Below are positions 13,691 to 55,679 of a DNA stretch of 64,000 bases, in pieces (position 1 is the first letter of the stretch; every line of letters starts with the position of its first letter). The stretch is from a virus. Lineage: Duplodnaviria; Heunggongvirae; Uroviricota; Caudoviricetes. The stretch lies in the IMG/VR virus record IMGVR_UViG_3300042473_000506; one strand, 5' to 3'. The notes beneath the pieces are model-generated. The model was not told the origin of the DNA and did no database searches. It was given only the letters and a program-made list of their open reading frames with translations. A program made the position numbers and the translations under genes.

Positions 13691-14959
13691 TTATTTATAA
13701 TGCGCGGTCTGGCCGAATGGAGAAATTATGGCATCGTTACCGTGAATAATAAAGATAGTATCACAATAATCTTCATCTCCCCAGCTACCGCAGGGATAAC
13801 CGTCAGTAAACATAATAAACTTCTTGGGTTGAATATCATTGTACTTCATGAATTCCCAGTTTGCATCAAAATCAGTACCACCGCCACCTTGGCAATCGTA
13901 CTCGTTAATATCATCAGCAGTATCTCCGGTAAATTGTTTGTAACCGTATACGTTAGTATCAAAACACCACAAATCTAATTTAAAGTCCTTGTACTCATCC
14001 ATAATACCTTTGACTTCTGACAAGAAATCTTTAGCCATAGCATCTGAAATACTACCAGACATATCGATTGCTACAGATACGTCAATAGTTTCTTCATTCA
14101 TCATACCTGGCAAGATAGCGCCACATTGTTGACTCTTGCGGTTAGGGCGAGCAAAGCTAAAATTGCTTTTAAGAATACTTTGGATATTCATGCGCAACAG
14201 TTGTCGCCAGTCCATCTTTGGCTCAGTAAAGTCTTTGATCATTCTAGCAATACCTGCAGGCACTTTACCTGCACCTGCTGATTGAGCAGCCGCTACCATA
14301 GCTTCTTTGATCTCATCACGGATTTGTTTCTTTTCTTCTGCAGTCAAACGTGGCCGGCCCTTACCACTTCCGTTAATTTCTTCTCCATCTTTGCCTTCAC
14401 CTTCCCCATCTTCACCCTCACCATCTAGGTGTTCGTCGAGCAATTCCCCTAATTGGGAAATATCAATCTTTTCAGCCTTGTCGTAAAGGTCCTGATAAAT
14501 CTGCTCGTAACTCCATCCGCGATATTTGTCGTCCTGGAAAATCTTAATAAAGCTAGGAACTGTACCGATACGTTCGTCTTTAAGAATTTGGTTAGCGGCA
14601 TAGTCTGCGGCAATGTTTGACAGTTGAGGGTCGCGCCCGTCTCGCCGACCCATATGATCAAATACATTATGGAGGACCTCGTGTGCAAAGCCAAACTCTG
14701 CTTCCTTAGGAGTAAGTTTATTTACAAATCCTAAATTAAAATAAAAATTGCGACCATCTGTTGCAAGGGTTTGACACCAGTCGCTAGCCTCTACCATTTT
14801 CATTCGGGTAGCAAGATTACCAAAAAACGGATGGCGGAGCAAGAGCCCAACTCGTGCGGTAATTAGTTTATCGAGAATTTTAGCTTTTTCACTTTCGCTA
14901 AAAGTTTTACCTAACCAATCTTGTTTCTTTTGTTTTTCTTGTTTCATTACTGCGGACAT
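13691..14959 (-). CDS. Putative metallopeptidase plus VWA-like domain protein (DUF2201-type), partner of MoxR ATPase
   Basis: ATDG...AHEVLH (HExxH), acidic/Gly linker, MIDAS motif AIDMSGS, GGGTDF, FTDG. Confidence 0.88.
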   Translation of the reverse strand: MSAVMKQEKQKKQDWLGKTFSESEKAKILDKLITARVGLLLRHPFFGNLATRMKMVEASDWCQTLATDGRNFYFNLGFVNKLTPKEAEFGFAHEVLHNVFDHMGRRDGRDPQLSNIAADYAANQILKDERIGTVPSFIKIFQDDKYRGWSYEQIYQDLYDKAEKIDISQLGELLDEHLDGEGEDGEGEGKDGEEINGSGKGRPRLTAEEKKQIRDEIKEAMVAAAQSAGAGKVPAGIARMIKDFTEPKMDWRQLLRMNIQSILKSNFSFARPNRKSQQCGAILPGMMNEETIDVSVAIDMSGSISDAMAKDFLSEVKGIMDEYKDFKLDLWCFDTNVYGYKQFTGDTADDINEYDCQGGGGTDFDANWEFMKYNDIQPKKFIMFTDGYPCGSWGDEDYCDTIFIIHGNDAIISPFGQTAHYK

Positions 14960-19084: not shown

Positions 19085-19933
19085 TCAAGTACCCCATTCG
19101 TTCTTAAACAATGGAACTTGCAATCTATCGCTATAACGGAGTCCGTTTTTCATAGCGGCTATTGCTACTGTTTTATTATTTAATGCGTAAACACTCTCTA
19201 CTCCACCTACCGGCATCAAATATACATGGCCAGTAAATCCTTCAGCGCGGAATTCTTCTGTAGCCCTTAGTGCATCTTCGATATCTTGTTCTGTTTCTAC
19301 AACAAACTTCAAATATGCTGTTCCATAATTCTCATAGTCGCAAACAACTTTGGGTTTAATAGCATCTTTCCAGGGCTCGCCGCTTGCCGGCAGTTTAGCA
19401 CTTACGCTAAATGTAATCTCTCTATCATCTCCGCCGAATGTCCAGTCTGTTAGATATTCTTTAAACTTTTCAGTTAAACGCATTGTACCGTTAGTTTCAA
19501 AAGTAATTTCTTTAAGACCTTTCATGCAAGGTTGATTCAGCAAATCTGGATAGGCCTTTTGCCACCCCAACAACGGCTCACCACCCGTGATAACAAGATG
19601 TTCGTCACGCCATTCTTTAAACGGCAATGTATCAACTACAGCCTTAGCAAGACCTTCAGTTTCGATCATCGGGCTTAGGTCTTTAAATGCAGGATGCCAA
19701 CTTGCATAACTGTCGCAGCCTGTGCTAACTAGCGGAAGTGATTTGTATTCTGCAAATTCAACAGCACGTTCTGCAATTTTATCTGCTTCTGCGCTCAGTT
19801 CACCGCGTGGCATACCAAAACCTTGACAGGTAAAGTTGCAGCCATATGTACGTAAGAATACAGAAGGGACGCCCATATAACGCCCTTCTCCTTGGATTGA
19901 ATAGAATAGTTCGGATACTTTAATTTTGCTCAT
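19085..19933 (-). CDS. queE: 7-carboxy-7-deazaguanine synthase (radical SAM)
   Basis: ELFYSIQGEG, VFLRTYGC, VITGGEPLL, FETNGT, SVSAKL, YLKFVV, YSDRLQ; Cys motif expanded to Cx3Cx36C. Confidence 0.9.
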   Translation of the reverse strand: MSKIKVSELFYSIQGEGRYMGVPSVFLRTYGCNFTCQGFGMPRGELSAEADKIAERAVEFAEYKSLPLVSTGCDSYASWHPAFKDLSPMIETEGLAKAVVDTLPFKEWRDEHLVITGGEPLLGWQKAYPDLLNQPCMKGLKEITFETNGTMRLTEKFKEYLTDWTFGGDDREITFSVSAKLPASGEPWKDAIKPKVVCDYENYGTAYLKFVVETEQDIEDALRATEEFRAEGFTGHVYLMPVGGVESVYALNNKTVAIAAMKNGLRYSDRLQVPLFKNEWGT

Positions 19934-30167: not shown

Positions 30168-30467
30168 TTATATATTTAACAATCTAATATAGCCGATGAC
30201 GTCTATAGTGACTAACAGTAGGTAGTTGGCTACCATACCTGTGCTCTTTCGAGTCCATGATGCCCATGCAAAAATTGCACATTGCAAAATAAATATCGGA
30301 TACAGATAGAAAAACAGCGGATCAGTTGCACCTGCTGCCAATGTCAGAGAGCAGCCTAAACTCATTAACCATGCTGAAATTTCTAACGAAAATCGGACAG
30401 GCCATTCTCGATAGTCATTCCTGGCCCAGTTGTACACGTTTCCAAGTACAGTTGTAAGTCTAGTCAT
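30168..30467 (-). CDS. Small membrane protein (about 3 TM segments)
   Basis: Three hydrophobic stretches in 99 aa. Confidence 0.65.
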   Translation of the reverse strand: MTRLTTVLGNVYNWARNDYREWPVRFSLEISAWLMSLGCSLTLAAGATDPLFFYLYPIFILQCAIFAWASWTRKSTGMVANYLLLVTIDVIGYIRLLNI

Positions 30468-30820
30468 TAATCTGCCTGTCTTGTAATAAAATTTACCCTA
30501 ATTTTTTTAGGATTAAAATATTTTGTTACTACATTCTGTGCAGTTAGCAAATCAAACTCTTTACAACTAAAAATATCAAAGTATGCAGTTCCGTCGAGTT
30601 CCATAAAATGACCACAAATATTACTTGTAGTTATTAGCTGCATTAAGCTGTAACCTTGTTTTGAATCTCCAGGTAACAAATATTCGATTATAGGTTCTCC
30701 GTACGCGACCATGTCGATCTTGTCAACAAGGTCTTTTACAAAATTATAAATGTTATCTTTGCAGTGAATTTGTTCACAACCACTACAATCTAACATTAAA
30801 TGATATCCCCAGTGGCTCAT
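30467..30820 (-). CDS. speD: Pyruvoyl-dependent S-adenosylmethionine decarboxylase family protein (SpeD/SpeH type)
   Basis: GYHLMLDC, GYSLMQLITT-SNICGHF (autocleavage Ser), FDIFSCKEF. Confidence 0.82.
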   Translation of the reverse strand: MSHWGYHLMLDCSGCEQIHCKDNIYNFVKDLVDKIDMVAYGEPIIEYLLPGDSKQGYSLMQLITTSNICGHFMELDGTAYFDIFSCKEFDLLTAQNVVTKYFNPKKIRVNFITRQAD

Positions 30821-31759: not shown

Positions 31760-31993
31760 TTATTTTTTTGTGGGCTGCTTTGCATCGTAGTAGGCTGCTA
31801 TAGCCATACGATCTTTCTTTTCTGGATCTTTGTTTTTAAATTGACGATATTGATTTGGGTCAGCAGTTTGAAAACGTTGTTTCCAATAGTCAATAGGCAT
31901 ATCGGGCCTTAGTTTAGGCTGTGGTCCGACTGGCTTAGTTTGTTGAGCAGGCTCCTCTGTCGGTGCCACCGGTTCCTGCTCAATTACTTTTTT
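31760..31993 (-). CDS. -1 frame extension of the 897-aa polyprotein (or an independent 69-aa ORF from the GTG at 31969)
   Basis: The frame is open upstream through the stop of the 31984 gene: KKVIEQEPVAPTEEPAQQ...YYDAKQPTKK. Confidence 0.6.
   Translation of the reverse strand, partial: KKVIEQEPVAPTEEPAQQTKPVGPQPKLRPDMPIDYWKQRFQTADPNQYRQFKNKDPEKKDRMAIAAYYDAKQPTKK
31943..31993 (-). promoter_or_regulatory. Candidate programmed -1 ribosomal frameshift signal
   Basis: In-phase A_AAA_AAG (31993-31987), then TAA, then a 9-bp stem TTGAGCAGG/CCTGCTCAA. Confidence 0.6.
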
Positions 31994-34677
31994 GATTTCT
32001 TCTTTTCAGGAAGACCTTTGTGCTTAGTTGATGCAAAGTCTTTGGCATCTTTCTTGCCCATATCCTTGGCTACTTTGGCAACTTCTTTACTGGCAGGCTT
32101 TTCACCTTTTTGTGCAGCATGAACCATGCCCATAAACTTTTGTTGCTGCTTGCTTACTGCTTTTTCACTCAGGACCTGTTGCAATGAGTGGGCAAGACTT
32201 TCCATATATACATCAACTTCGGATACTGACTGTTCCATACTTCTCAACTCACCAAGTGTGTCGGAAACAAAGTCTTCATCATAGCTGATCAAATATCTTG
32301 CCTCCTTTGGCGACATGTTTAATTCTTTGACCAGCACCATGCCTATTGCGTTGATCAATTCATTTTCTTGTGCAGGATCGTATTTGATTCCACGATCTGA
32401 TAGAATTTTAGCAACTTGATAACTTGTGCGATCTTCCGGTGCTTCCGCTACACCTTGCTCACTCTCGCCTATTTCAAGTTCGCCGCGACTAGCCATTCGG
32501 TTTTGTAATTTATCCAGATTACCCGACTGCAACTGACTATCAAATTGTGGTAGCATTTGAGCAAGGGTATCAGGATCCATTTCAATATCAAATTGATTTG
32601 ATAGTATCTGTTGCCAATTTAGTATTCTTCTTTTTTCTGGTGTTCCTATAGGAGCCATGACTACTGCTTTTAGATATGCCATTGCTAAATGTGTTTTGTT
32701 TGCTCCAGAGCCTTCCGCCACACCTTGCTCAGGACTATGTCTCAGATTGGCTATGTAACCATTGGGACCAGTCCATTGATCTTTATAGTCTTGCCATTCG
32801 TTCTGACTCCATGCTATAGGGAACATTTGCCAGGCCCACATTCCATGGGTATTAAACTCGCTAGAAAATTCCTGTATGTCTGCCAGTGTAATACCCGAGG
32901 TCTTGGTCTGTTTAGCAACATCAATCAACCAGTGCGCCATGGTTTCGCCACCGTCTTCGAATTCGCTTAATTTTTTTAATTTATTAAATCTATCTGCACC
33001 TTGCTTGGCAAACTCACGGCAAAGATCTTCAAGCCATTTTATAAATTCCTGACCAAATTTGGCCAATGCAGTCTCGGGGTCGCTGCCTGTTCTTGCAGTG
33101 AGGGACTTATTCAAATTATCTACACCTTGCCTGGCACCAGCACCGCCTGTGATCTGTCCCATCATGCTGTCAAATCTCTCATCGCCTGTTGCCTCCGCCA
33201 CACCTTGCTTTTTATTTCGCAACAGGCCCACCTGTTTTAGTTTTGGGTCCATGAAGTAATAAACATTCCCGTCAGCACCCACAGCATGACTTTTACTTGC
33301 AGTGTATCCAGTTCTTAATTCATCAGGAGTTGCAGGTCTTACTTGTTTCACTGATTCACGCAAATCGCCTTCTTCAGGGTCTTGGCCAGTTTTTACAAAA
33401 TGTTCAAGTTCTTCAAGTGAATAACCAACTTGATCGGCTAGGTTTTGTTTGTCTTCTGGCGACATTCTGCGCCATCCACTTCTTATTGTTTGTAGTTGTA
33501 GGGACAACTCGTGGCGTCTGGTCATTTCGTTACCAGCATTAGTTACTGGACCGTTTAAAATGTTTCTGATTTCTGAAGTATAGTATGCGTCTGCTTTACC
33601 TGCCATTTGACTACCGTACTGTTGACCTAATGTTTTCCCACCAAACTTTTTGACTTGTTGTGCGCTTAATACTTTGGCAAGATGCGTAAAATCTTTTCCG
33701 TTTCTTATTGCGGCTACTAGTTTTTCTTCGGCCGCTTCAATCCATTCTTGGAATTCAGGATCTGCTTGAACGGCCAAGTTGTCTACTTCTTGATTATAGA
33801 AGTCAATTGATTGTTGGTGCCCATCTGTACCTGCGGCATTAGCTGGCATGTTTACACTTGAGCTACCAAATGCCTCCGCCACACCTTGCTTTGGCAAATC
33901 ACTTAATTGATCCGGAATATAGTCTTCATCGTAACTTAATAAGTAACGAATTTGTTTTGAACTCATTCCTGCTTTCTTCATGTATTGAGCCATCAATCCG
34001 ATGAGTTCATCTTCTTTATCTGGGCTGTAGGTAATGCCGTCTTGAGCCATTTGCTGTCCAATGGACAACTTAGTTTGATCCGCTGGGATACTCAAATACT
34101 GGTCGCCTGGCATACTGGCTCCACCTTCCTCTACACCTTGCTGCTCTGCTTTTGCTTTGGCCTCATCTCTAGTACGACTATAACCTTGGGCTATTGCTAG
34201 TTGTACTTGATTAGGGTAGACAGACGTTTTGAACATTTTACCATCTTTAACAACATACCAGTCTGTTGGATCTAAGTCGTGTCGTTCATCATCGCCGCGA
34301 TTGAATGCACCACCTACTCCACGAAATGGCATGCCTGCTTCTGCTAACTTTGATTTTAGTTGATCAATTTTTGTGCGTAGAGATTCCATATAGGGCTTTT
34401 TATGTTTTGCAGCGCCCTGCTTTTGTTCTTTTTTCTTATCCTTGTGTGCGCCTGCACCACTGGACTTGGCATTCTTAGCAACAAAATTACGGGGAGTAGT
34501 TGCAGGAACTTTGTCTTTACCTGCTTCTTGTGCCAAGATATTTCCGCGCTTTTGGACTTTGCCTAACGAGCTCGGTGCTGTAGCAACACTACCTGAACCG
34601 GTTGCACCTGCTGTCATTGACTCTAATGTATAGCGAGTTTCGTTATTGCTTTTTGATTTTTTAAATTCGTTGTTCAT
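31984..34677 (-). CDS. Modular head-internal-like polyprotein with QGVAE linkers
   Basis: Five QGV(A/E)E linkers plus LAE/LRE/VSE/LSE junctions separate unrelated 75-230-aa modules; basic C-terminal module KAVSKQQQKFMGMVHA...FASTKHKGLPEK. Confidence 0.75.
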   Translation of the reverse strand: MNNEFKKSKSNNETRYTLESMTAGATGSGSVATAPSSLGKVQKRGNILAQEAGKDKVPATTPRNFVAKNAKSSGAGAHKDKKKEQKQGAAKHKKPYMESLRTKIDQLKSKLAEAGMPFRGVGGAFNRGDDERHDLDPTDWYVVKDGKMFKTSVYPNQVQLAIAQGYSRTRDEAKAKAEQQGVEEGGASMPGDQYLSIPADQTKLSIGQQMAQDGITYSPDKEDELIGLMAQYMKKAGMSSKQIRYLLSYDEDYIPDQLSDLPKQGVAEAFGSSSVNMPANAAGTDGHQQSIDFYNQEVDNLAVQADPEFQEWIEAAEEKLVAAIRNGKDFTHLAKVLSAQQVKKFGGKTLGQQYGSQMAGKADAYYTSEIRNILNGPVTNAGNEMTRRHELSLQLQTIRSGWRRMSPEDKQNLADQVGYSLEELEHFVKTGQDPEEGDLRESVKQVRPATPDELRTGYTASKSHAVGADGNVYYFMDPKLKQVGLLRNKKQGVAEATGDERFDSMMGQITGGAGARQGVDNLNKSLTARTGSDPETALAKFGQEFIKWLEDLCREFAKQGADRFNKLKKLSEFEDGGETMAHWLIDVAKQTKTSGITLADIQEFSSEFNTHGMWAWQMFPIAWSQNEWQDYKDQWTGPNGYIANLRHSPEQGVAEGSGANKTHLAMAYLKAVVMAPIGTPEKRRILNWQQILSNQFDIEMDPDTLAQMLPQFDSQLQSGNLDKLQNRMASRGELEIGESEQGVAEAPEDRTSYQVAKILSDRGIKYDPAQENELINAIGMVLVKELNMSPKEARYLISYDEDFVSDTLGELRSMEQSVSEVDVYMESLAHSLQQVLSEKAVSKQQQKFMGMVHAAQKGEKPASKEVAKVAKDMGKKDAKDFASTKHKGLPEKKKSKK

Positions 34678-35039
34678 TTCTTCATCCAGTTTGCTACAGG
34701 GCTTACGGTATATGTATTGTCCAGTTCGCGACTTTCCATATCACCTTTATTTACATCTTTATAGTTTGCACCAACTACCTTGTATGCTTGTTTAAGCATT
34801 TCTTGTTCTTCTTTACTGTAAGGATGAGTAGTTTTAGTTTTACCCGCCCAACTCTTACCATTCATTTCGATGGGGTCTTTTCCGTTGGCTCCTGCTACTG
34901 CCATGCCTAATCTATAGGATGTATAAGTGCTGTCGGCTCTTTCACCGTCCTTGTAGGTATTTAAACCACGAGTAGCCTGTTGCTGTCTCTTGGTAATTTT
35001 ACCTGTTTTCATCTCAGTGATTAGTTCATTGATGCGCAT
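34674..35039 (-). CDS. Small head-internal-like protein with T4-IP-like N-terminal leader
   Basis: Start moved to MRINELITE (ATG at 35039), 5 nt after TAAATA; the leader resembles the T4 capsid-targeting sequence MKTYQEFIAE. Confidence 0.65.
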   Translation of the reverse strand: MRINELITEMKTGKITKRQQQATRGLNTYKDGERADSTYTSYRLGMAVAGANGKDPIEMNGKSWAGKTKTTHPYSKEEQEMLKQAYKVVGANYKDVNKGDMESRELDNTYTVSPVANWMKK

Positions 35040-35043
35040 AATG

Positions 35044-35319
35044 TTATTTATTTCTTCCGTACCATAGTTCAAACCATGCGGGAGAACCAGATTTAATTCC
35101 ATGCTCTTTCATGTATTTAGCCTTATCTACAGCACCAGATTTAACGTAATTGGATTCTCTTACGGATGCATTGTATTCGTGCAGTCGTTCTGTAGCATTT
35201 AGCCCGCCCATATAGCTAACAGTCTTTAAGGCGTGTATAGGATCTTCCGGTGCAAGATAGCAATCGTCCGGACTGTCCTTTACCATGTTTTCGTGAGTGA
35301 TGTAATACTGCTTGATCAT
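35044..35319 (-). CDS. Hypothetical protein
   Basis: 91-aa ORF with an ATGA overlap to the 1606-aa gene. Confidence 0.7.
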   Translation of the reverse strand: MIKQYYITHENMVKDSPDDCYLAPEDPIHALKTVSYMGGLNATERLHEYNASVRESNYVKSGAVDKAKYMKEHGIKSGSPAWFELWYGRNK

Positions 35320-38300
35320 TTTCTAATAAGATTTTCGATCAGTGCGCCCATAATATTTTCAACATCTTCACCTACTGGCACACACTTGTCTTTACCGTTC
35401 TCAGTACCGTTGTAGCGATAATTTTTCCAACAGGCTTTACCATCAGCACCTTTTTTCTTAGCTTCGTCAACGGCATTCATCTTGTTTAATAGTTCCTGTG
35501 CCTTTTCAACACTGATCATATAACGACCAGTTCTATTAGGATCAGCGGCTTTTTGCAACCACTCTTTATTAAATCCTGCAGATGCTGCTGGTTTAACATC
35601 GCTAGGAGCGACCTGTGTTACATTGGGTTTGCCTGTTAAACGATTGATATTAGGATCATCGCCAGGTGTAACTCGAGCATTTGCTCCAGCGGACCCTAGT
35701 GCCATTGCACCTGCAAGTCCTAATCCTGCTAGTTTAGATCCAAGTCCTTCATCGACCTCTTCCGACATACCTTGCTGAAAAGATTTGAATACCACACGAG
35801 CAATTTCTTCAACATTCTTTGGAGATAGTTTTTTACCTAGCTGTTCTTTTGCCTGTTGATAGATATCGTTGATGTTTGGGTTTTCAAAGTTATTTTCGGA
35901 ATCCCAATATGTAAATGATACTTCTTCACCATTTACTGTGAGTGTGTAAATATTTTGATTAACATCAGTATCTAAGTCAACGAGCTCAACGCCTTGCGTC
36001 ACAGGCTTTTGAACCTGTTCAGGACCCACTACTCCCAAATACTTAACAGCATAGTCCAGTGCTCGTTTAACACCAGCTGGTCCTGCCAATGAATCAAACG
36101 CAGGCTGGCCACGTTTGAAATTGACCTGATCGCCAACTTCATCCCAGTCTCCGTGTGCTGTAATGTCTATCAACTCACGAGCCGAACCCGGAAATTCTTC
36201 AAATCGAGTCTGGCCCATTCTGCCCCACAAGTTAGGTAGGGCGGTGTGACGACCACGTGCATCTATGTATTCATTAGTCTCTTGATCACGCACATACGCA
36301 TGTACTACTGAGTGTCGGCTGATATCGTTTGAGATTTCTTCTTGTTCTTCTGGACTTAGATCGTTCCACTCATCATCATCCATTTGCATGTCCGGTGCGC
36401 CAGCAGACATGTTGTATTCCCAGATATATCCTATTGGATACCTCTTTGGATTATGCTGATTTATAGCAACGGCCAGTACCATGCATTGTCCTTCCATGTA
36501 GTCGGCTTGCGCCTCTGCTCGGTCAGCGTCTTCCGCCACATTGTAATCAGGCATAGGTCTTTGACCAGGGCGACCTTTAACTCCACGCTTCTCTGTGCTT
36601 GGTGGTTTCGTTGGAGGAACAATGTCACCCTGATTTCTATATGGCTGCGGAGCCTTTTTAGGATTGCGGACATCGATAGGAGACTGTGCTACTACGATAG
36701 GAGCACCTTCCGCCACACCTTTAGTATCGTTAGCAAACTGTTTCTTAGTTGCCTTGACAATGCCACTGAAACGCTTGTCGGCTTTTTTAGTGTTGCCTGC
36801 CTTGTCAGCAGCACTGGCTTGTGCGCCGGCAGCCTTCTTATACTGTCCTAACTTTTCATTGGACAACTCTGCAACAATCTGCTTCAATCCTGCTAACGCA
36901 CGACTTTCATTAACTTTAGGGTCCATGCCTAGTTCTTTCTGACTCTGCAAATAGTCCCAAACACTGACCAACATCATCTCGGCCTTGGCAATCTTTTCTT
37001 GTCCCCACTCTGGTAAGTTGTCGTTGTTCTTGATTGTTTTTAACAAGCCATCAACAGCACGAGCCATAGTGCGTAGATTGCTCTGCGCCATTCCTGCTTC
37101 GTCGTCGTATTCACTATTGAATTCTTCTTTCTTTAAATTGCCCCAATCGTCTTTCTCGCTAGAATACTTGCGGCTATTACGATCTGCTAATGCACCTTTC
37201 TCCATCTTGGCTCTGCGCTGTTCTCTATCACTGTCGAACTTAGCATACTTCTGTGCTTCGCGTCCTTGTGGATTGATTAGGTCTCTAACCATTTGACTGG
37301 TCGGCGCATTTTCAAACATTGGCGTTTTCTGTGTTCTAATCAATGCGTTAAATAATCTTTGTTCTGCAACCGGTACTGGTTGTGGTGCTGCTGCGGGCTG
37401 TTGAACAATGCCCATACCTTTTCTTGAGATGTCCATAAGATGTAGTATCCAATCTTTACCTAATTGTTGTGCGTTAAATCCCTGCGCCCATACTGCATAC
37501 TGCTGTTCCGGAGTAGCATTGGGATTTTTTAGAACATCGCGTAGTTTAGTAAAACTTATAGGTCGTGTTCTTGGGATAGTTTCCAAACCGACCTTAACAT
37601 GCTCGTAGCCCGGAAACTTATTAACAGCCTTCATTAGCGCACCTGCGATAGGCATGTCTTTACGATCTTCACCTACCATGATAACAATGTTGTCATACTT
37701 GGGAGGCTTGCCCGGCTGCGGACTGATCAATTCGTGTTTGACCTTTTGCATTAAACTTCCACCTTGCATTACAGCACCGATATTGTCAGCATACTGCGGA
37801 TATAGTTTATGCCATGTCTGTACCTTAACGTCTGTTGGGATAGGATCGTCTGCACCCACTGCATTGCCAATAAACAGGTAAGGATCACCGCCTAATTCGT
37901 TGGCCTTCTTAACAGTTTCGTTAAACAAGTCTTCGTGTCCTAGATGTCCTGCAAAACTACCAACTGCTACCACTGCGGTCTTTAGGGGACCTTGACGTTT
38001 TGCACCCGGTTGAGCCATTTTAGCAGCCATAGCCGACTTCATCTGCTGACTAGTGACTTTAAATATTTGACCGTTAGGCATATTAACAACAACACCTTCC
38101 ATGTTGTCGCCTAGCGCATCTTTGCCTGCTAATTTAGGATTATTAATAATAGCATCGCTTAGTGCTTGTTTAGCTTGATCGAACGCAGGCTTATTAGCTT
38201 TGTCTTTAGGATCTAAGTTTAGAATAGGATTAATAATCTTGCTGACGTTAATGCCTTTTTGTTCTAGATTATTACTGACAATTTTAATGTTGCTATCACT

Positions 38301-40136
38301 GGCTGCTAACAAACGCTTTTTGATCTTGTCAGCATCGGGTCTTTCGTCTCCTGTGCTGTATTGTTTGAATACAAAAGGCACCAGTGTCATCTGCTTGCCT
38401 AGCTTTTTAGGATCGTAAGGAATATTGACAAATTTTAGTCCTTGGTCAGTTTGTTGTGCCATGGGATTATACATCATTTCTGCTTGTACAATAGTGTCTG
38501 CAGGTAGTGATTGTATAAACTTGCTACCGGTAATCAATGCCAGTGCATTGTCATAATTCTTTGTTCTTGCCAATGTCTCTGCATCCTGACCTTTTTCTTG
38601 ACCAAAGCTGGTAAAATAACCTACATCATCTTGATACAATGGAGTAGTCACTTTGCTGGTCATGAAGAACGGACGACCACTTTGATCTTTACCGAATCGA
38701 ATGCCTGCGCCGTCTACTTTCAAACTGATAGGCACACCGTCAAGTTTGCCACCATTGTCTGCAATTGCCTTGGCAATTTCTAAGAAATCTGCATTCTTCA
38801 TTTCTGCTGTACTTACACGACCATCTGGCAGTCTGTTGTACAGGTGTTTGATACCTTGGCGAGCATAGTCTGGCTTTGCTGCTACTTCTGCTGCGGCATC
38901 TTCTGCTACTTCGGTACTGAGTGCATTTCCTCGTTTGGCATTGAACTGGTCTGCATAGTCCATTGCCATCTTAACTGCTTCTTGTCTTAGGCCTTGAGCA
39001 TTTGGTAAGTTTAGAGGCTTAACCCCTCCACCGCCTAGCAACATAGCATCTACTGCGGCAAACTTAACATCACGATCTCGAGCTGGATCATCTTTAGTAA
39101 TCATCTGTGCTCCGGGTCCAAATAGAATGTCTAGGAATGCACGAGTTACGGATTCAATTTGTTCAGGTTCAAACGACTTGTTCATTAGCTGTAGTGTTCC
39201 TACAAAGCTACCTTGCAAGTTTCGATCAGCAACACCACGCTTACGACCGAAGTTCATCTGGAACTGTTGGTCTAAATTTTGAATATAGTCGCGGTCTTTT
39301 GGATCCAGCAGTTGCATAACAGGAATGCCGTCTTTTTCCATATGCTGTCCTGTAGCAGGATCGATGTATGGCTTATACTTTATGCTCATGCCGCCGCCCT
39401 GAGAACTGCTGACTGCAAAACTGTAGTCGCTGTCTGTAACGGGAGCATCACTAATCTTAACACTTTTCTTAAGTACTCGGGCTACATACTTTTCACTGGA
39501 CTGTGCATGTGTTAGAGCACGGTTGATATATTTGTGGAATACACCTTTAATACCAGCAGCCATGTCATCATAGTGACTACTATGACTGTAGGCAAACCAT
39601 TCAGTTGGTGCATTTGTTTTAGCGTCATACGGACCTAATTCATAATCAACTTGAATACGAACCTGCGGATCATCTAGCAACCAAATGCTTGATAACGAAC
39701 TGTTAAATCCTAAGAATGTGCCGTTGCCAACTTTCTTACCAATAATACTCTTTAACCAAGCAGTGACTTCATCGCCCATATCCTGGTCAATCTGCGTGTC
39801 GATGTCGCCAACTTTTGTTTTCTTTAGTTTGTTTAAGAAGTCCTGTGTATTGATTCCCTTAACATCAAAGAATTGTAAGCTGCTACCACTGAGCATCTTT
39901 CCCGATGCCAATAGTTTTGGATCCCAAATATATTTGCCGTAGGCTGCTTTAAATGATTCGTTTTGTGCAGACAATAATTCTCGCAGTTGAGCCACCATGT
40001 GATCACGGTCGTGAATCTTTAGATCAATTTCTTCTGCTTCTTGATCAGCAGCACCTTGCCAACCTGGACTTTGACTTGATACATTGCCGCCTTCGAGCAA
40101 TGGTTTTTTATTTCTGATTAGGTCGAACAACTGCAT
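35316..40136 (-). CDS. 1606-aa multidomain polyprotein: Pol-beta-like nucleotidyltransferase + KxDG ligase-type domain + HxGH cytidylyltransferase-like domain + small modules
   Basis: LSGSS...GDIDTQID...IQVDYE; LKVDG...EGVVV...FKV; GSFAGHLGH...MVGEDR...PISFTKLR; then modules separated by hydrophobic-x-E junctions. Confidence 0.75.
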   Translation of the reverse strand: MQLFDLIRNKKPLLEGGNVSSQSPGWQGAADQEAEEIDLKIHDRDHMVAQLRELLSAQNESFKAAYGKYIWDPKLLASGKMLSGSSLQFFDVKGINTQDFLNKLKKTKVGDIDTQIDQDMGDEVTAWLKSIIGKKVGNGTFLGFNSSLSSIWLLDDPQVRIQVDYELGPYDAKTNAPTEWFAYSHSSHYDDMAAGIKGVFHKYINRALTHAQSSEKYVARVLKKSVKISDAPVTDSDYSFAVSSSQGGGMSIKYKPYIDPATGQHMEKDGIPVMQLLDPKDRDYIQNLDQQFQMNFGRKRGVADRNLQGSFVGTLQLMNKSFEPEQIESVTRAFLDILFGPGAQMITKDDPARDRDVKFAAVDAMLLGGGGVKPLNLPNAQGLRQEAVKMAMDYADQFNAKRGNALSTEVAEDAAAEVAAKPDYARQGIKHLYNRLPDGRVSTAEMKNADFLEIAKAIADNGGKLDGVPISLKVDGAGIRFGKDQSGRPFFMTSKVTTPLYQDDVGYFTSFGQEKGQDAETLARTKNYDNALALITGSKFIQSLPADTIVQAEMMYNPMAQQTDQGLKFVNIPYDPKKLGKQMTLVPFVFKQYSTGDERPDADKIKKRLLAASDSNIKIVSNNLEQKGINVSKIINPILNLDPKDKANKPAFDQAKQALSDAIINNPKLAGKDALGDNMEGVVVNMPNGQIFKVTSQQMKSAMAAKMAQPGAKRQGPLKTAVVAVGSFAGHLGHEDLFNETVKKANELGGDPYLFIGNAVGADDPIPTDVKVQTWHKLYPQYADNIGAVMQGGSLMQKVKHELISPQPGKPPKYDNIVIMVGEDRKDMPIAGALMKAVNKFPGYEHVKVGLETIPRTRPISFTKLRDVLKNPNATPEQQYAVWAQGFNAQQLGKDWILHLMDISRKGMGIVQQPAAAPQPVPVAEQRLFNALIRTQKTPMFENAPTSQMVRDLINPQGREAQKYAKFDSDREQRRAKMEKGALADRNSRKYSSEKDDWGNLKKEEFNSEYDDEAGMAQSNLRTMARAVDGLLKTIKNNDNLPEWGQEKIAKAEMMLVSVWDYLQSQKELGMDPKVNESRALAGLKQIVAELSNEKLGQYKKAAGAQASAADKAGNTKKADKRFSGIVKATKKQFANDTKGVAEGAPIVVAQSPIDVRNPKKAPQPYRNQGDIVPPTKPPSTEKRGVKGRPGQRPMPDYNVAEDADRAEAQADYMEGQCMVLAVAINQHNPKRYPIGYIWEYNMSAGAPDMQMDDDEWNDLSPEEQEEISNDISRHSVVHAYVRDQETNEYIDARGRHTALPNLWGRMGQTRFEEFPGSARELIDITAHGDWDEVGDQVNFKRGQPAFDSLAGPAGVKRALDYAVKYLGVVGPEQVQKPVTQGVELVDLDTDVNQNIYTLTVNGEEVSFTYWDSENNFENPNINDIYQQAKEQLGKKLSPKNVEEIARVVFKSFQQGMSEEVDEGLGSKLAGLGLAGAMALGSAGANARVTPGDDPNINRLTGKPNVTQVAPSDVKPAASAGFNKEWLQKAADPNRTGRYMISVEKAQELLNKMNAVDEAKKKGADGKACWKNYRYNGTENGKDKCVPVGEDVENIMGALIENLIRK

Positions 40137-40513: not shown

Positions 40514-41218
40514 TTACCCTTTTAACTTGGCTAAACCCAAAAACTCTAGCCCTTTAATGTACATCCAACCTATGTCAAATTCCCACCACTTCTGACTAAA
40601 CTTAGGATTTGCGATATCTGCATGGTGATTATTGTGCAATTCCTCACCGCCGATCCATATGCCCCATGGCATTAAATTTTTACTCTTATCTTTAGTGTCA
40701 GTATTGCGATATCCCCACCAATGTGCTAGTCCGTTTATTACACCTGCTGCAAAAAAAGGTATCCACAACATCTGTACACCCCATACTAAGAATCCCCACC
40801 AACCAAATAACAACACGTCTATAACCAACATTACGAGAATACCCAATCGGTGATGGGGTGTATAAAGTGTACGTTCAATCCAGTCTTTAGGAGTACCCAT
40901 TCCGTATTTCATAACCATGTCAGCATCACTGCCTGCTTGATTATAATACTTGACTCCTCTAAATACTAAATTCCAAATACCAAACACATGCGGACTGTGT
41001 GGATCACCTTCTACGTCAGTATTTTGATGATGTTTACGATGTACTGCCACCCATTGTTTAGTGGTCATACCTGTAGTGAGCCATAACCAGAAACGCATAG
41101 CGTGTGCCAGTACTGGGTGAAATTCAACGCCTCTGTGACTTTGACTGCGATGTAGATATAGTGTAACACACATTATAGTAATGTGTGTAAACAGTAACGT
41201 TATTAAAATTAAATTCAT
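40514..41218 (-). CDS. Membrane fatty-acid desaturase (delta-9 acyl-lipid/acyl-CoA type)
   Basis: His boxes HRSQSH, HRKHH and HNNHH; DPHSP; WWEFDIGW; TM segments. Confidence 0.95.
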   Translation of the reverse strand: MNLILITLLFTHITIMCVTLYLHRSQSHRGVEFHPVLAHAMRFWLWLTTGMTTKQWVAVHRKHHQNTDVEGDPHSPHVFGIWNLVFRGVKYYNQAGSDADMVMKYGMGTPKDWIERTLYTPHHRLGILVMLVIDVLLFGWWGFLVWGVQMLWIPFFAAGVINGLAHWWGYRNTDTKDKSKNLMPWGIWIGGEELHNNHHADIANPKFSQKWWEFDIGWMYIKGLEFLGLAKLKG

Positions 41219-41244: not shown

Positions 41245-41697
41245 ATGAGTATCAGCGACGACCCGCAATATTGGATCAACTTACAGTGGCCAGCGGCTCC
41301 TAATCAAGACGATTATTCTGTATTTTCTAGCTATTGTATAGGTCGTGTTTTACTGTTAGGTAGCACTCGACTGCTGTTGCCCTTGTGTACAGAAGCGTGG
41401 GACGTAAATCCTGTATATGATGACCCTAAAATCCAGTCTAGGGATTGGTTTACACTAGACAAACACTGGGATACTATTATCGTAGACGGTGCGTTAGCAT
41501 TTGGTAAAGATTACTGCGAGCAGTTGTTAAAAGCAGTATTGCCAAACTGTGATCGTTTTATTGCCCGTAGTTTCCTAAACCCTAACTGGCCCACTAAGTA
41601 TGCTCAATATTTTCCTAGAGCACACGAATTAACACCTGTTCCACAAGAACACCCCATCAACGAAGTTTATACATTTTACATATGGAACAACAAGTAA
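41245..41697 (+). CDS. Hypothetical protein (possible degenerate Rossmann/methyltransferase-like fold)
   Basis: VLLLGST..L, WDTIIVDGAL and FIARSF resemble class I MTase motifs I and IV; weak. Confidence 0.55.
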   Translation: MSISDDPQYWINLQWPAAPNQDDYSVFSSYCIGRVLLLGSTRLLLPLCTEAWDVNPVYDDPKIQSRDWFTLDKHWDTIIVDGALAFGKDYCEQLLKAVLPNCDRFIARSFLNPNWPTKYAQYFPRAHELTPVPQEHPINEVYTFYIWNNK

Positions 41698-42272
41698 TAT
41701 TAGCCATGTACTCAGGCGGCCTGGACAGCCTAGGTATGATCTACAAACTGTTAACAGAACCCGAGTATAAACACTATGTTCTACACATACATCACATACA
41801 CCATCACAATGTAGAACATAGAGATCGTGCTGAAGCTGTAGTTGTTGACCGTGTGCTGAAAGAATTAGAAAGTATGGGCTATAGTTTTATCTTCAGTGAA
41901 AGTGAGATAGGCTCACAGCCCTACAATGGGCAGTTCATGTATGACACAGACAGCATCAACTTCTTTGCTGGCTATATTTGCTCTGTTAATCCACGTATTG
42001 TACGAGTTGCTATGGGGATGCAGGCCAACGATCATAACCATAGTTTAGAGGAACGCAGAATACGTGCCAATGCTATACTGACAGCATTTACACCTGTGGA
42101 GAAAATATATCCTGTGTTAGATATGACCAAGCGTGAAATATACGATATGTTACCAGAAGGTTTGCGTAACATGTTTTGGTCGTGCCGGCGTCCAGTGTAC
42201 AGTGAAAAAAATATCGCACCTTGTCTAAAGTGCGATACTTGTGTGAAACTGCGTGAGCAGGGTATACGTTAA
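41682..42272 (+). CDS. queC: QueC-like PP-loop ATPase (7-cyano-7-deazaguanine synthase family)
   Basis: YSGGLDS PP-loop; C-terminal SCRRP...CLKCDTC Zn motif; shorter than canonical QueC. Confidence 0.72.
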   Translation: MEQQVILAMYSGGLDSLGMIYKLLTEPEYKHYVLHIHHIHHHNVEHRDRAEAVVVDRVLKELESMGYSFIFSESEIGSQPYNGQFMYDTDSINFFAGYICSVNPRIVRVAMGMQANDHNHSLEERRIRANAILTAFTPVEKIYPVLDMTKREIYDMLPEGLRNMFWSCRRPVYSEKNIAPCLKCDTCVKLREQGIR

Positions 42273-52732: not shown

Positions 52733-53422
52733 TTATACGGAAAAAGCAGTCTCTCTAAGGATAAACTCTTCAACTTTTTTGATGTATCCGCTCAAATATA
52801 TGCCTACCATGCTGAGCATTTTGTCGTCTTCTACGTACATAAAGGGATCTTGTGCGTAGTGTCTAGTGCTTACAAGCCATCGTCTACTGGTTTCGCTAAT
52901 GTCTAGCTTGTCTCCGTACTTATCTGCCCAGGTTACAAATGTAGCTCGCTTGTCTGCAGGGAATCTTGATTTAAAATATACCCTGTATTTGTACTTTTCT
53001 TTGGGAAATACGTCTCGCAGTATCTTTTTATGACCATTACTAAGCATGAATTCTAGTTCTTGGTCCGTAGTCGGCCCGCTTATCTTTCTAATCCACTTGT
53101 TTAGATCTTTATCTATTGTTTCTAATATAGATTTGTCTGTGCAAAATAGATTAAAATGCGACCCTTCTACTCGAATTTTTACATCGGGGTTGTCAATGAA
53201 CGGTGCTACTAAGTTAGTAAACTCTAAGTAATCTGCTTTGTTGATTTGCAAAGCAGACAGCCTATCAACGTGCATACCTTTACCAGTAGCACACCACTCT
53301 CGAACAATATCGACTCCGCTGTGAACAATTCTAGAGGCTCCTACTTGTCTACATTCGACTTTGTAGGGCCACTTGTTATAGAACAGTTTACTGGAGTTCA
53401 GTTTCTGTATCTGTGTTTTCAT
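52733..53422 (-). CDS. Hypothetical protein
   Basis: Likely start MKTQIQK (ATG at 53422), overlapping the clpA end. Confidence 0.65.
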   Translation of the reverse strand: MKTQIQKLNSSKLFYNKWPYKVECRQVGASRIVHSGVDIVREWCATGKGMHVDRLSALQINKADYLEFTNLVAPFIDNPDVKIRVEGSHFNLFCTDKSILETIDKDLNKWIRKISGPTTDQELEFMLSNGHKKILRDVFPKEKYKYRVYFKSRFPADKRATFVTWADKYGDKLDISETSRRWLVSTRHYAQDPFMYVEDDKMLSMVGIYLSGYIKKVEEFILRETAFSV

Positions 53423-55679
53423 CTGGAATCTTTGATTTAATGACTGGCATAACATCAACAATGTTAAGTTTTAGTTGTTCGTCTACTACATTAACTTCAA
53501 CTACTCCGCCGTTTGTTAATTTACCAAAAAGAATTTCACGACTCATAGGTTTCTTAATGAATTCGTCAATAGTTCTTTGCAAAGGACGAGCACCCATTTT
53601 ACTATTAAATCCTTTGGCAATTAAAAATTCAACTGCTTCGGCATTGGGTTTAACATGAATATTTTTGTCTTTAACTAATGCATTGAGCTCGTCAATAAAT
53701 TTCTTAACAACTTTGATCATTGTAACATGGTCTAACTTACCAAACTTAACAATACCATCTAAACGATTGCGGAATTCAGGCGCAAAGAATTTGTTAACAG
53801 CATCTTTAGGATCACTATCACGCTCTAGACTACCAAAGCCTACTGAATTCTTTTCAGCATCTGCGGAACCTAAGTTTGATGTCATAATGATAATAGCATT
53901 GCGACCATCTGCCTTTTTGCCGTTACTACCGGTAATAAAACCATTGTCCATTAATTGTAGCATAACAGTTAGTACATCCGGGTGAGCCTTTTCGACTTCG
54001 TCTAATAAAAGAACACAGTTAGGTGTTTCTTGTAAGCATGTAATCAACTGTCCTGCATTTTCATCAAATCCTACGTATCCAGGCGGCGCTCCAATAAATT
54101 TAGCAACACTATGTTTTTCCTGAAATTCACTCATATCAAATCGTACAAGTTTAATTCCCATACCAGTGGCGAGCTGTTTAGCAGCTTCAGTCTTTCCTAC
54201 GCCAGTAGGACCTACAAACAAGAAACTACCGACCGGCTTATTAAATGGTTTTAATCCTGCTTGGGCAATAAAAATCTTATCTAACAGGCTAGTGATAGCA
54301 TTTTCTTGACCGAAAACCTTGTTACGTAGGCCTTTTTCCAGACTTGCAAGATTAACACCTTCTTTTGAGCTAACCTGTTCAATTGGAAGATTAGCCAGTC
54401 TTGCAACTTCAAAAACAATCTCGTCATGATCAACAACTCCGTTTTCTTCGTCCTTAACTTTAAATCGAGCACATGCACAATCAATTAAGTCTAGCGCCTT
54501 ATCTGGAAGCTTCTTGTCAGTCATGTACTTAACAGAGTAGGTTACTGCATCAGTAATGGCTTGATTGGTAATCTTAACACCGTGGTGTTTTTCGTAATAC
54601 TTCTTAACACCTTTTAGGATCTTAATAGTAACTGCTTCACTAGGCTCGTCAATAGTAACACGCTGGAATCGACGCATTAGGGCGCGATCTTTTTCAAAGT
54701 GCTTGCGATATTCTTCCCAGGTAGTACTGGCGATAACTTTTAGTGTACCTTTTGTCAGCATAGGCTTGAGCATATTTGCCATGTCGTTACTGTTACCATT
54801 TGCAGCGCCTGCCCCGTTCATCATATGTGCTTCATCGATAAACAGAATACAATTTTTCTTCTTTTCTAACGCACTGATAATAGCTTTAAGACGTTCTTCA
54901 AAATCACCACGATACTTACTACCGGCAAGCATAGAACTAATGTCCATACTATAAACAGTGTGATCTTGAATAAATGTAGGAACAGTACCTTCAATGATTT
55001 TTTTAGCCAAGCCTTCTGCAATAGCAGTTTTACCTACACCGGGATCACCGATTAAAATAACGTTACTTTTGTTTCTTCGAGCAAGTACTAGTTGAACTTC
55101 TTCGATTTCTTTTTCACGACCGATAACTGGATCAATTTTCTTTGATTTTGCTTTTGCAGTTAGATTGGTGCAGAACTGACTAATCATCCTTTCAAGTTGG
55201 AGATTAGATCGTGTGCTACCTGCAGAACTCTCCTCATTGTCTTCTTTGCTATATTCTTTTTGGATAAAATTTAGGAATTTATCTTTATCGATATTTGCTT
55301 TTTTAATAAAGTGCGTGGCATAGCTTTTCTTTTCAGCAAACATGCTGATAAAACAATCAACTGGTTCAATAACATTTCTACCAGTAAACAACACCTGAGT
55401 AAACGCTCGATTTAAAACGCGATCAACTGTATTTGTTTTTTTAGGACGATCGACGCTTGGGTTAACAATTTCCTTTAAATCTTCTGATATATATTTTTCT
55501 AAGTCTGTAATTAAACTTTTAACGTCAGCACCAAAGCTACCGAGGAGTTTTGCAAATTCTTCGTTAGTAACTAGCCCGTGCAAGAAGTGTTCAAGAGTAA
55601 CATACTCGTGTTCGTGTTCGTTGGCTAGACTCACGGCTGATTCGAAAATCTGCTCAAGATCTTTATTTGGTTGTAGCAT
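53388..55679 (-). CDS. clpA: ATP-dependent Clp protease ATP-binding subunit ClpA
   Basis: N-domain HEYVTLEH; two AAA modules GDPGVGKT/LFIDEAH and GPTGVGKT/LLLDEVEKAH; FDMSEFQEKH, GAPPGYVG, GARPL. Confidence 0.96.
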   Translation of the reverse strand: MLQPNKDLEQIFESAVSLANEHEHEYVTLEHFLHGLVTNEEFAKLLGSFGADVKSLITDLEKYISEDLKEIVNPSVDRPKKTNTVDRVLNRAFTQVLFTGRNVIEPVDCFISMFAEKKSYATHFIKKANIDKDKFLNFIQKEYSKEDNEESSAGSTRSNLQLERMISQFCTNLTAKAKSKKIDPVIGREKEIEEVQLVLARRNKSNVILIGDPGVGKTAIAEGLAKKIIEGTVPTFIQDHTVYSMDISSMLAGSKYRGDFEERLKAIISALEKKKNCILFIDEAHMMNGAGAANGNSNDMANMLKPMLTKGTLKVIASTTWEEYRKHFEKDRALMRRFQRVTIDEPSEAVTIKILKGVKKYYEKHHGVKITNQAITDAVTYSVKYMTDKKLPDKALDLIDCACARFKVKDEENGVVDHDEIVFEVARLANLPIEQVSSKEGVNLASLEKGLRNKVFGQENAITSLLDKIFIAQAGLKPFNKPVGSFLFVGPTGVGKTEAAKQLATGMGIKLVRFDMSEFQEKHSVAKFIGAPPGYVGFDENAGQLITCLQETPNCVLLLDEVEKAHPDVLTVMLQLMDNGFITGSNGKKADGRNAIIIMTSNLGSADAEKNSVGFGSLERDSDPKDAVNKFFAPEFRNRLDGIVKFGKLDHVTMIKVVKKFIDELNALVKDKNIHVKPNAEAVEFLIAKGFNSKMGARPLQRTIDEFIKKPMSREILFGKLTNGGVVEVNVVDEQLKLNIVDVMPVIKSKIPDENTDTETELQ

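Follow-up and report, generated by a model that had tools for sequence, protein, structure and literature searches.

What holds together the long chains of mostly unrelated protein modules that two neighbouring genes of an uncultured phage encode, and what purpose does the short repeat between these modules serve? The question is raised by a stretch of 64,000 nucleotides (nt) from the tailed-phage record IMGVR_UViG_3300042473_000506 of IMG/VR, referred to here as the window. Its polyproteins P0001 (897 amino acids (aa); 31984–34677) and P0002 (1606 aa; 35316–40136) are both encoded on the minus strand, as are all features of these genes given below. An earlier note on this DNA had described eight copies of a QGVAE-type repeat, hereafter the linker, at the module boundaries of the two open reading frames (ORFs), and had read each copy both as a point of recombination and as a protease site.

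The linker repeat and the exchange of modules

The eight in-frame copies were recovered. On the minus strand, CAAGGTGTGGCGGARG was matched seven times when up to two mismatches were allowed (0.02 expected from shuffled sequences). These matches start at 32442, 32712, 33192, 33873, 34125, 35759 and 36707 in plus-strand numbering, in which the positions of the earlier note are correct, and the eighth copy is partial. The encoded peptides are QGVEE, QGVAE (four copies), KGVAE, QGMSE and NVAE; every copy lies in frame within P0001 or P0002, and the rest of the window does not contain the motif. The earlier note's values for the spacings (252, 681, 480 and 270 nt) are correct and each is divisible by three, the copies at 33888 and 33207 do have 22 identical bases in common, and the intervening modules are, as had been said, mostly unrelated, with only M2 and M6 being paralogous.

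The claim that the repeat is written in rare codons also holds. Across 43 ORFs of the window GCG makes up 8% of the alanine codons and GTG 12% of the valine codons, yet GCG is used at five of five GVAE sites and GTG at four of five, and a chance GVAE in an ORF of the tail-fibre region (7778–7789), which serves as a control, reads GGA GTA GCA GAA. Among relatives gathered by protein similarity, using peptide seeds from which the linker was excluded, GTG GCG was found in 86 of 100 GVAE linkers (48 of 66 without duplicate contexts) against approximately 2% expected, and VAE without a preceding glycine was found to be written in common codons. A further control is provided by 91 different N-terminal leaders of the form MRAxEFxxE from the same loci, in which alanine is encoded by GCA (59%), GCT (22%), GCC (16%) and GCG (2%) and the phenylalanine and glutamate codons vary freely. 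This leader motif is clearly selected and yet its codons vary; peptide-level function alone therefore does not fix silent sites here. Since CAA, GGT and GAA, which are common codons, are as strongly fixed in the linker as its rare ones, it is the identity of the sequence that is kept and not the rarity of its codons.

The consensus of the linker DNA is CAA GGT GTG GCG GAR GGC/GCN. At least 120 IMG/VR contigs contain its 17-mer without a mismatch, and 153 of 160 copies encode QGVAE in open frames of a median 545 codons. In near-complete genomes a 12-mer of the linker is present one to six times each (the reversed control word not once), and nearly all copies lie on one strand per record, two records having a single copy on the opposite strand. 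Between moderately diverged module pairs, conservation at four-fold sites is 0.99 in the linkers versus 0.84 in the module bodies. By these comparisons the linker DNA is conserved beyond its peptide across the clade, strongly though not absolutely, and the linker may be regarded as a clean natural case of selection, or of recombination-driven homogenisation, acting on the silent sites of a coding repeat.

Three other roles for the DNA word were considered and ruled out. A Chi-like or genome-wide signal does not fit, as the word is confined to polyprotein genes, where it always stands in the coding orientation; a RegB-type GGAG site does not fit, as the majority of copies read GGAAGG; and for an internal translation start at the linker a start codon at a suitable distance is absent.

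The boundaries of homology between polyproteins were found to coincide with the linkers. In a blastn comparison of 137 polyprotein ORFs, 47% of the 790 internal ends of high-scoring segment pairs (HSPs) fell within 6 nt of a linker, versus 5.7% of random positions. On P0001 the ends of protein HSPs, taken from independent matches in a collection of 5.8 billion proteins, cluster at residues 98, 113–116, 184–185, 268, 495, 655, 745 and 821, which are the positions of the linkers and of three degenerate junctions (PYME, KLAE and QSVSE). The identical sequence P0003 aside, each of the 120 listed homologues (374 found) covers at most 37% of P0001 despite identities of 40–95%, and splitting the polyproteins at their linkers gave 563 modules in 354 families.

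The most mobile of these modules is cassette M4 (residues 496–655 including its 3′ linker; 32713–33192), for which at least six different neighbours were found on the left and at least six on the right. It is 99.8% identical (506 of 507 nt) to part of a different polyprotein in the relative L001 and 92–93% identical to segments of L003, L004, L239, L241, L244 and L246. The adjoining M5 is 92.7% identical to L001; the two cassettes lie in two separate ORFs of L001, and each matching segment runs from linker to linker. The genes shared by L001 and the window (DNA polymerase, ClpA-like and others) are 64–69% identical in nucleotides, about 66%. Judged by these identities, M4 and M5 of L001 are cases of recent transfer of single cassettes between distant phages. 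Relative L221, with approximately 89% nucleotide identity over the polymerase region, nevertheless carries different modules at the orthologous polyprotein locus; the leader region and one module are all that its polyprotein has in common with P0001, and a further module of it is part of P0002 in the window.

The proposal that modules are gained and lost at the repeats is thus borne out among relatives, in which content and order vary, even at the L221 locus, and breakpoints coincide with the linker. The reading of the repeat as a recombination point is upheld by these breakpoints, by a linker-bounded cassette of 99.8% identity and by silent sites fixed beyond codon usage. It is strongly supported by sequence comparison that the linker is a site of in-frame gain, loss, replacement and movement of modules, both within the polyprotein genes of one phage and between distant phages.

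Leaders, candidate cleavage sites and rival readings

Most of the polyproteins, and many neighbouring single-module proteins, begin with a leader of the common form M-(K/R)-x-x-(D/E)-hydrophobic-hydrophobic-x-E, which is very like the capsid-targeting sequence MKTYQEFIAE of T4. A strict version of this pattern was found in 34 of 96 polyproteins compared with 147 of 1740 other ORFs (p = 2e-12), many of these others being clearly the same kind of protein. Leaders of about 10–20 residues with a hydrophobic-x-Glu end are present in the window, the likeness to T4 being one of pattern only and not of T4's own sequence. P0001 opens with a 19-aa long variant of the capsid-targeting leader, MNNEFKK...YTLE/S (34621–34677; the slash separates P1 from P1′), and the segment following E19 aligns from P1′ with the segment that follows MKIGQILE/ in L229. 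The 15-aa leader of P0002, MQLFDLIRNKKPLLE/GG (40092–40136), is the counterpart of MILNELFRPKKLVVE/GG in L201; E15, G16, G17 and N18 are invariant in nine homologues, and residues 1–15 have a predicted local distance difference test (pLDDT) score below 50, being disordered in the model. In related phages the propeptide junction of the major capsid protein, YLAE/SATAGAT, resembles the leader end of P0001. It was also observed that this leader end together with what follows it, NETRYTLE/SMTAGATGSGSVAT, resembles the gp23-type capsid propeptide junction and mature N-terminus ENTRKYLAE/SATAGATAASNVAT of L251–L254, and it could be a mimic of the segment by which the capsid protein binds the scaffold or the protease.

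A candidate protease is encoded in the clade. In four motif-bearing contigs, genes for a gp21-type Peptidase_S77 (above the Pfam cut-off), a coiled-coil scaffold and a gp23-type capsid protein stand side by side; three of the four also hold a DNA polymerase gene, 58–64% identical to that of the window. The capsid propeptide junction in these contigs is L-(A/S/K)-E/S, at the position where T4 gp23 is cut. A logo of 92 unique linker junctions (P5 Q, P4 G, P3 V/M, P2 A, P1 E, and P1′ G/A/S in 76%) fits the same form of a hydrophobic-x-Glu followed by a small residue. Modules that follow a linker in one protein were found directly after a leader in another, with homology starting at P1′. Of 100 unique pairs of this kind, 46 have glutamate at the residue aligned with P1, and several other pairs are offset by one or two residues. 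For example, the module after the QIVAE of P0002 (residue 1090) is 69–73% identical, from its first residue, to the module following MKPSDFLTE/ in L194 and L105. This equivalence in position of the linker and leader glutamates is the strongest point for the protease-site reading. Cutting at the linkers would yield the same mature proteins, if leaders are removed as in T4. The linker is consistent with a site for a gp21-type prohead protease, and is a plausible candidate for one.

The explanation that we consider probable is that P0001 and P0002 are cargo polyproteins which are targeted by their leader, joined by linkers, shuffled at these linkers and cut by the prohead protease. Each ORF would open with a T4-type capsid-targeting leader ending in hydrophobic-x-Glu, its modules being joined by (Q/E/K)-G-V-A-E/(G/A/S). 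Exchange would take place by homologous or microhomology recombination, or by template switching, between 15–18-nt copies during co-infection, and since every copy is in the same phase it would preserve both the reading frame and the linker. Cassettes with the majority version on either side would find the largest number of recombination partners, and their turnover would outpace mutation at silent sites, so that the standard word persists. The leader would carry the whole chain into the prohead, where a gp21-type protease would cut after each glutamate and free the modules, which would stay with the DNA and be ejected into the next host. A more tentative extension, possible but somewhat doubtful, is that the linker is a standardised in-frame connector, one DNA word being kept as a clade-wide currency by cassette-level selection, possibly with a linker-specific nuclease or recombinase, so that any module plugged in would gain packaging and release. 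If true, this would be a counterpart in prokaryotic viruses of exon shuffling, without introns.

A number of observations weigh against the cargo explanation or parts of it. The nearest relative, L221, uses the non-canonical linker codons GTT GCT, GGC GTA GCA, ATA GCA and GTG GCA, and between deeply diverged module pairs the four-fold sites of the linkers are conserved at 0.56 versus 0.40 for the module bodies, a modest difference. Canonical linkers are not significantly commoner beside shuffled modules (35/11 versus 26/12; odds ratio approximately 1.5), and the repeat joints seen in lake contigs (32728>36721, 32729>33875 and 32730>33871) have only 20–21 nt on their short side. Residue P3 of the P0001 leader is threonine and not hydrophobic. 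A gp21-type protease or capsid gene was not found in the 64-kb window, nor did G006, the closest near-complete contig, give a gp21 or gp23 match with Pfam models and a related protease query. The polyprotein genes sit amid replication and metabolic genes, and of the T4-type late promoter TATAAATA the window has just two copies, neither of them upstream of a polyprotein gene. Most cassettes belong to no recognisable family, which leaves the label of effector unproven, and cleavage, packaging and ejection are deduced from comparison of sequences.

Some of these points may be qualified. The junctions of L221 with non-canonical codons (L221:10–1855) are still module boundaries, and its linkers may have decayed, or the lineage may have departed from the common standard. 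The joints in lake contigs were taken to come from contigs of other phages with the repeat in common, and not to be deletions in this one. Contig G006 (the IMG/VR contig of L137; 342,865 bp, rated 99% complete) has a DNA polymerase 67% identical to that of the window and five linker words. Pfam searches for gp21 and gp23 in G001–G005 gave no match either, and these misses in G001–G006 are not evidence of absence, because the contigs are fragmentary or may lack the region.

Other explanations have to be set beside that of cleaved cargo. The linkers could be only recombination joints and flexible spacers, the polyproteins being uncut multidomain proteins, packaged or not, with an incidental likeness to protease sites. 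The indirect nature of the case for cleavage and the distance of the genes from the head module would suit this, as would the V-A-E sites inside the enzyme block of P0002, which use ordinary codons and may belong to folded domains. A pure spacer, however, needs no fixed V-A-E: the P1 glutamate of the linkers is invariant and P1′ small in 76% of them, the same modules begin elsewhere exactly after the glutamate of a T4-type leader, and the clade encodes a gp21-type protease, so that we hold uncut proteins to be unlikely. Where silent sites are concerned, their conservation might serve the messenger RNA or its translation, with a pause at rare codons or at Shine-Dalgarno-like AGGTG/GGAGG letting the modules fold in turn. 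GTG and GCG are indeed rare, and AGGTG forms part of the linker, to which the GAG variant adds GGAGG. This is nonetheless very improbable, given that the common codons are equally fixed, that the majority of copies use GAA and so are without GGAG, that the closest relative L221 lacks the canonical codons, and that the breakpoints of homology at the linker are left unexplained.

A true site-specific in-frame cassette system, in which a dedicated nuclease or recombinase recognises 11–18 nt of linker DNA, appears quite improbable, if slightly less so than a role in translation. The DNA word is kept across phages with core-gene identities of approximately 60–66%, and these phages carry homing-type endonucleases such as the HNH gene at 13691–14959, but the ORFs scanned in the window include neither a recombinase nor a nuclease linked to the polyprotein loci, the linker is non-palindromic, non-canonical linkers also stand at module boundaries, and T4-type phages recombine efficiently without such an enzyme. 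Finally, the shuffling could be an artefact of assemblers joining different phages at a shared repeat of 17–22 nt, as the relatives are all metagenomic contigs and contigs from the lake runs break or diverge at repeats. The repeat is shorter than the usual final k-mers of assemblers, though, and all joins keep long open frames. The arrangement of the window was recovered unchanged in single contigs of 11–14 kb from two of four lake runs (2020 and 2024), with overlapping pieces in the other two, and several alternative arrangements recur across independent samples (e.g., L003/L004/L244 and L239/L241/L246). Given this recovery across runs and recurrence of alternatives, assembly chimerism is unlikely, and as an account of the shuffling we find it scarcely credible.

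The polyprotein genes, their proposed cargo and their setting

Behind its single leader P0001 has about eight modules, the last being a Lys-rich DUF3008-type tail, and P0002 has about seven, a conserved enzyme block of approximately 1140 aa being followed by several cassettes; the one-cargo-per-gene rule of T4-type internal proteins is not followed. The enzyme block aside, the modules are unrelated units of 50–230 aa.

In P0001, DNA homology to L003 and L004 begins at the junction KLAE/AG (residues 110–113; 34339–34350), adjacent to the cluster of protein HSP ends at 113–116, and the 91.7% HSP to these two relatives stops at the linker QGVEE (CAA GGT GTA GAG GAA; 34126–34140). Three canonical QGVAE linkers follow: one matching the 16-mer at 33874–33888 (CAA GGT GTG GCG GAG), one at the left edge of M4 (33193–33207), where the near-identity to L001 begins 2 nt upstream, and one, again a 16-mer match, at the boundary of M4 and M5 (32713–32727). 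The right edge of M5 is formed by a QGVAE in the variant codons GTA GCG (32443–32457), and the HSP of M5 to the second L001 ORF runs exactly to this linker from the previous one. An HSP to L221 stops at the degenerate junction QSVSE/V (32218–32232), where the protein HSP ends at residue 821 lie. M2 (residues 185–268; 33874–34125) and M6 (residues 746–820; 32233–32442) have the motif YL(L/I)SYDED in common, and M2 is 43% identical to the L221 copy of M6; by this paralogy the same cassette family is present twice in one chain, the remaining inter-linker modules of P0001 being mutually unrelated. M4 gave no Pfam match below E 0.03 and no usable Atlas match. The C-terminal module (31987–32217) consists of a YMESL helix and a Lys-rich DUF3008 domain (PHROG match 7e-24; Pfam DUF3008 weak) with a net charge of +9. 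As a stand-alone small protein the DUF3008-type tail is present in 156 cyanophage records, and in S-SCSM1 it is annotated as a virion protein.

The relatives of P0002 are 40–56% identical across its N-terminal block and differ in their C-terminal modules. Residues 16–412 (38901–40091) form a domain like the nucleotidyltransferases of the Pol-beta superfamily, based on an AlphaFold2 (AF2) model (pLDDT 85) and fold comparison, with VIA-align Z scores of 8.0 to Pol mu, 7.3 to Pol beta and 7.1 to TUT7 (range 8.0–6.5, which is moderate). GS (84–85) and GDID (110–113) are invariant in this domain, which also exists as a stand-alone protein of approximately 388 aa in Campylobacter CP21/CP220-type and Vibrio phages. 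Residues 413–925 (37362–38900; AF2 pLDDT 80) appear to comprise RNA-ligase-like (KxDG) and HxGH adenylyltransferase-like domains, Foldseek giving PPAT, NMNAT, FAD synthetase, T4 Rnl1 and archaeal RNA ligases at E 1e-5 to 3e-4, and K61, D63, G64, H319 and H322 (segment numbering) are invariant. A search of PDB sequences with P0002 gave no match. On the strength of these models, the block at 37362–40091 appears to combine three nucleotidyl-transfer domains, and a role in RNA repair or nucleotide transfer at the start of infection, following delivery in the capsid, may be guessed at. Of the effector modules proposed in the earlier note, then, this one block can be given a function by fold as a three-domain nucleotidyl-transfer enzyme, and most cassettes are without a recognisable function. 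No peptidase or named polyvalent domain was found in P0001 or P0002 using Pfam and PHROG with whole proteins and ten pieces, a search which a divergent peptidase could escape.

Beyond the enzyme block, the junction QIVAE/LS (36867–36881), written in the common codons GTT GCA, precedes the module that aligns with the post-leader module of L194 and L105. This is followed by the linker KGVAE (AAA GGT GTG GCG GAA; 36708–36722; a 16-mer match), the partial linker NVAE/D (AAT GTG GCG GAA GAC; 36531–36542), which is the copy placed at about 36530 in the earlier note, and the variant QGMSE (CAA GGT ATG TCG GAA; 35760–35774; a 16-mer match). The last module (35319–35759) starts immediately after QGMSE with the signal-peptide-like LAGLGLAGAMALGSAGANA, the most hydrophobic 19-mer of P0002 (residues 1469–1487), and ends with a mini-motif CW..Y...C-VP-x-x-E. 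A segment similar to this module follows the leader in L111, and the two-Cys mini-motif (CW.NY...C-VP-x-x-E) recurs as a small cassette in many relatives. It is conceivable from its sequence that the hydrophobic start is an export signal exposed only after cutting.

Between the two polyprotein genes lies a small gene (34674–35039, minus strand) with the likely leader MRINELITE/M, of the same form as the 91 MRAxEFxxE leaders of related loci. It is listed as an ORF of 142 aa (34674–35102), but the true start is likely the internal ATG at 35039, giving a protein of 121 aa with this leader; the shorter gene fits without overlap, because the upstream ORF ends at 35044. Genes flanking the polyproteins encode a fatty-acid-desaturase-like membrane protein (40514–41218, minus), an S-adenosylmethionine-decarboxylase-like protein (30467–30820, minus) and a ClpA-like AAA+ ATPase (53388–55679, minus).

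The window is phage DNA, with genes for a family-B DNA polymerase, thymidylate synthase, QueE- and QueC-like proteins and the ClpA-like ATPase, and with a tail-fibre gene block that includes a collagen-like fibre of 2206 aa. Its polymerase shares 50% identity with that of Sinorhizobium phage Phosso, 46% with that of Atu_ph07 and approximately 43% with those of Rak2/GAP32-like jumbo phages. The source is best explained as an uncultured freshwater jumbo myophage of the T4 superfamily, near Atu_ph07, Phosso and the Rak2-like phages, with a genome of approximately 350 kb, a size taken from related IMG/VR contigs of 190–230 kb that are rated 55–65% complete. The region is present in at least 24 metagenome runs from lake water. 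Among cultured phages no similar DNA was found in a search at near identity, and tblastn returned single modules only (DUF3008 in cyanophages, and the N-terminal domain of P0002 in Campylobacter, Vibrio and Xanthomonas phages).

Other features of these genomes were also observed. The QueE-like radical-SAM gene (19085–19933, minus) and the QueC-like gene (41682–42272, plus) suggest 7-deazaguanine modification of the phage DNA. Inside the tail-fibre block is a subtilase gene (Peptidase_S8, E 3e-29; 4776–6443, plus), which may encode a fibre-maturation or host-surface enzyme and is not an obvious candidate for cutting after glutamate. In G007 (the IMG/VR contig of L148; 524,565 bp) the motif positions come back 347,553 bp further on, and two copies of the DNA polymerase gene are present; the record seems to be a genome of approximately 348 kb repeated 1.5-fold as a concatemer rather than one of 525 kb.

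Relation to known systems

The closest known system is that of the T4 internal proteins with their capsid-targeting sequence and gp21, followed by polyvalent proteins, the junction motifs of polymorphic toxins and PeSL shuffling. In T4, leaders target internal proteins to the core and are removed by gp21 (PMC5694885, PMC3012670); IPI, IPII, IPIII and Alt carry the N-terminal capsid-targeting sequence MKTYQEFIAE, which is cut off by this prohead protease (PMC3012670, PMC5694885, PMC12373910). The two systems are alike in their short leader with a hydrophobic-x-Glu end, in the gp21-type protease found in the clade, and in a diverse cargo without homology apart from the leader, the genes of which lie outside the head module; the T4 cargo is injected and blocks host defences. 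They differ in that T4 has one leader for each separate cargo gene, whereas here up to about eight modules per ORF stand behind one leader and are separated by a repeated internal site, which is conserved in DNA whereas the leader is not.

Polyvalent proteins are chains encoded by phages and conjugative elements, for which delivery together with the DNA and cutting into units have been proposed (Iyer, Burroughs, Anand, de Souza, and Aravind, 2017; PMC5512222). They are thought to be self-processed by an embedded domain of the metallopeptidase type, and no repeated, DNA-conserved linker has been described for them (PMC5512222). In having 2–15 unrelated domains per polypeptide and variable architectures they are like P0001 and P0002, both of which fall within this range.

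In polymorphic toxins, junction motifs such as VENN in CdiA and PxxxxDPxGL in Rhs are known. There too a short conserved motif stands at the edge of a coding module that can be exchanged, with a presumed part in recombination as well as in processing. The toxins have just one such junction, at which a constant body meets a variable toxin tip, and are paired with an immunity gene, whereas here there are many equivalent junctions in series, no immunity genes and the setting of a phage capsid.

The PeSL cassettes of T4-type phages are intergenic units of promoter and stem-loop which move whole genes (Arbiol, Comeau, and Krisch, 2010; PMC2839356). Like the linker they are short repeats in T4-type genomes where recombination inserts, deletes and replaces genes; unlike them, the linker is coding and in frame in all its copies, moves parts of genes and is no intergenic early promoter or stem-loop. 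In phiKZ and SPN3US, head and ejection proteins are cut by gp175/gp245 at (S/A/G)-x-E (PMC5694885, PMC10052503). These are also jumbo phages with many packaged proteins cut after glutamate, some at several sites. They are, however, of another lineage with another motif, most of the cuts take off long propeptides, and exchange of cassettes has not been reported at these sites. Integron arrays likewise hold exchangeable units bounded by a recurring short site; they need the IntI integrase and folded attC, and move whole promoterless genes. The earlier description of the locus as integron-like stands as an analogy only, since attC-type inverted repeats are absent, the linker being a non-palindromic direct repeat of 15–18 nt inside one frame, and a module is not a gene of its own. 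A scan of 31 ORFs of the window found no integrase.

In the literature on prohead proteases and polyproteins and on jumbo-phage cargo no description of QGVAE-linked polyproteins was found, a search for QGVAE returning only papers on alpha-synuclein. If the cargo explanation is true, one sequence of 18 nt would solve three problems, namely the loading of several cargoes by one leader, their release by the resident maturation protease and their frame-safe re-dealing among phages. It would explain the fast diversification of the arsenal of proteins injected by giant phages, and would give a rule (leader or linker, then module) by which hundreds of still unknown candidates for anti-defence proteins could be picked out of lake metagenomes. 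It would also suggest a natural, ready-made design for packing several foreign proteins in T4-type capsids. Compared with the known systems, what differs here is that cargo is chained behind one leader, that the internal site doubles as the point of exchange, and that this site is fixed in its DNA.

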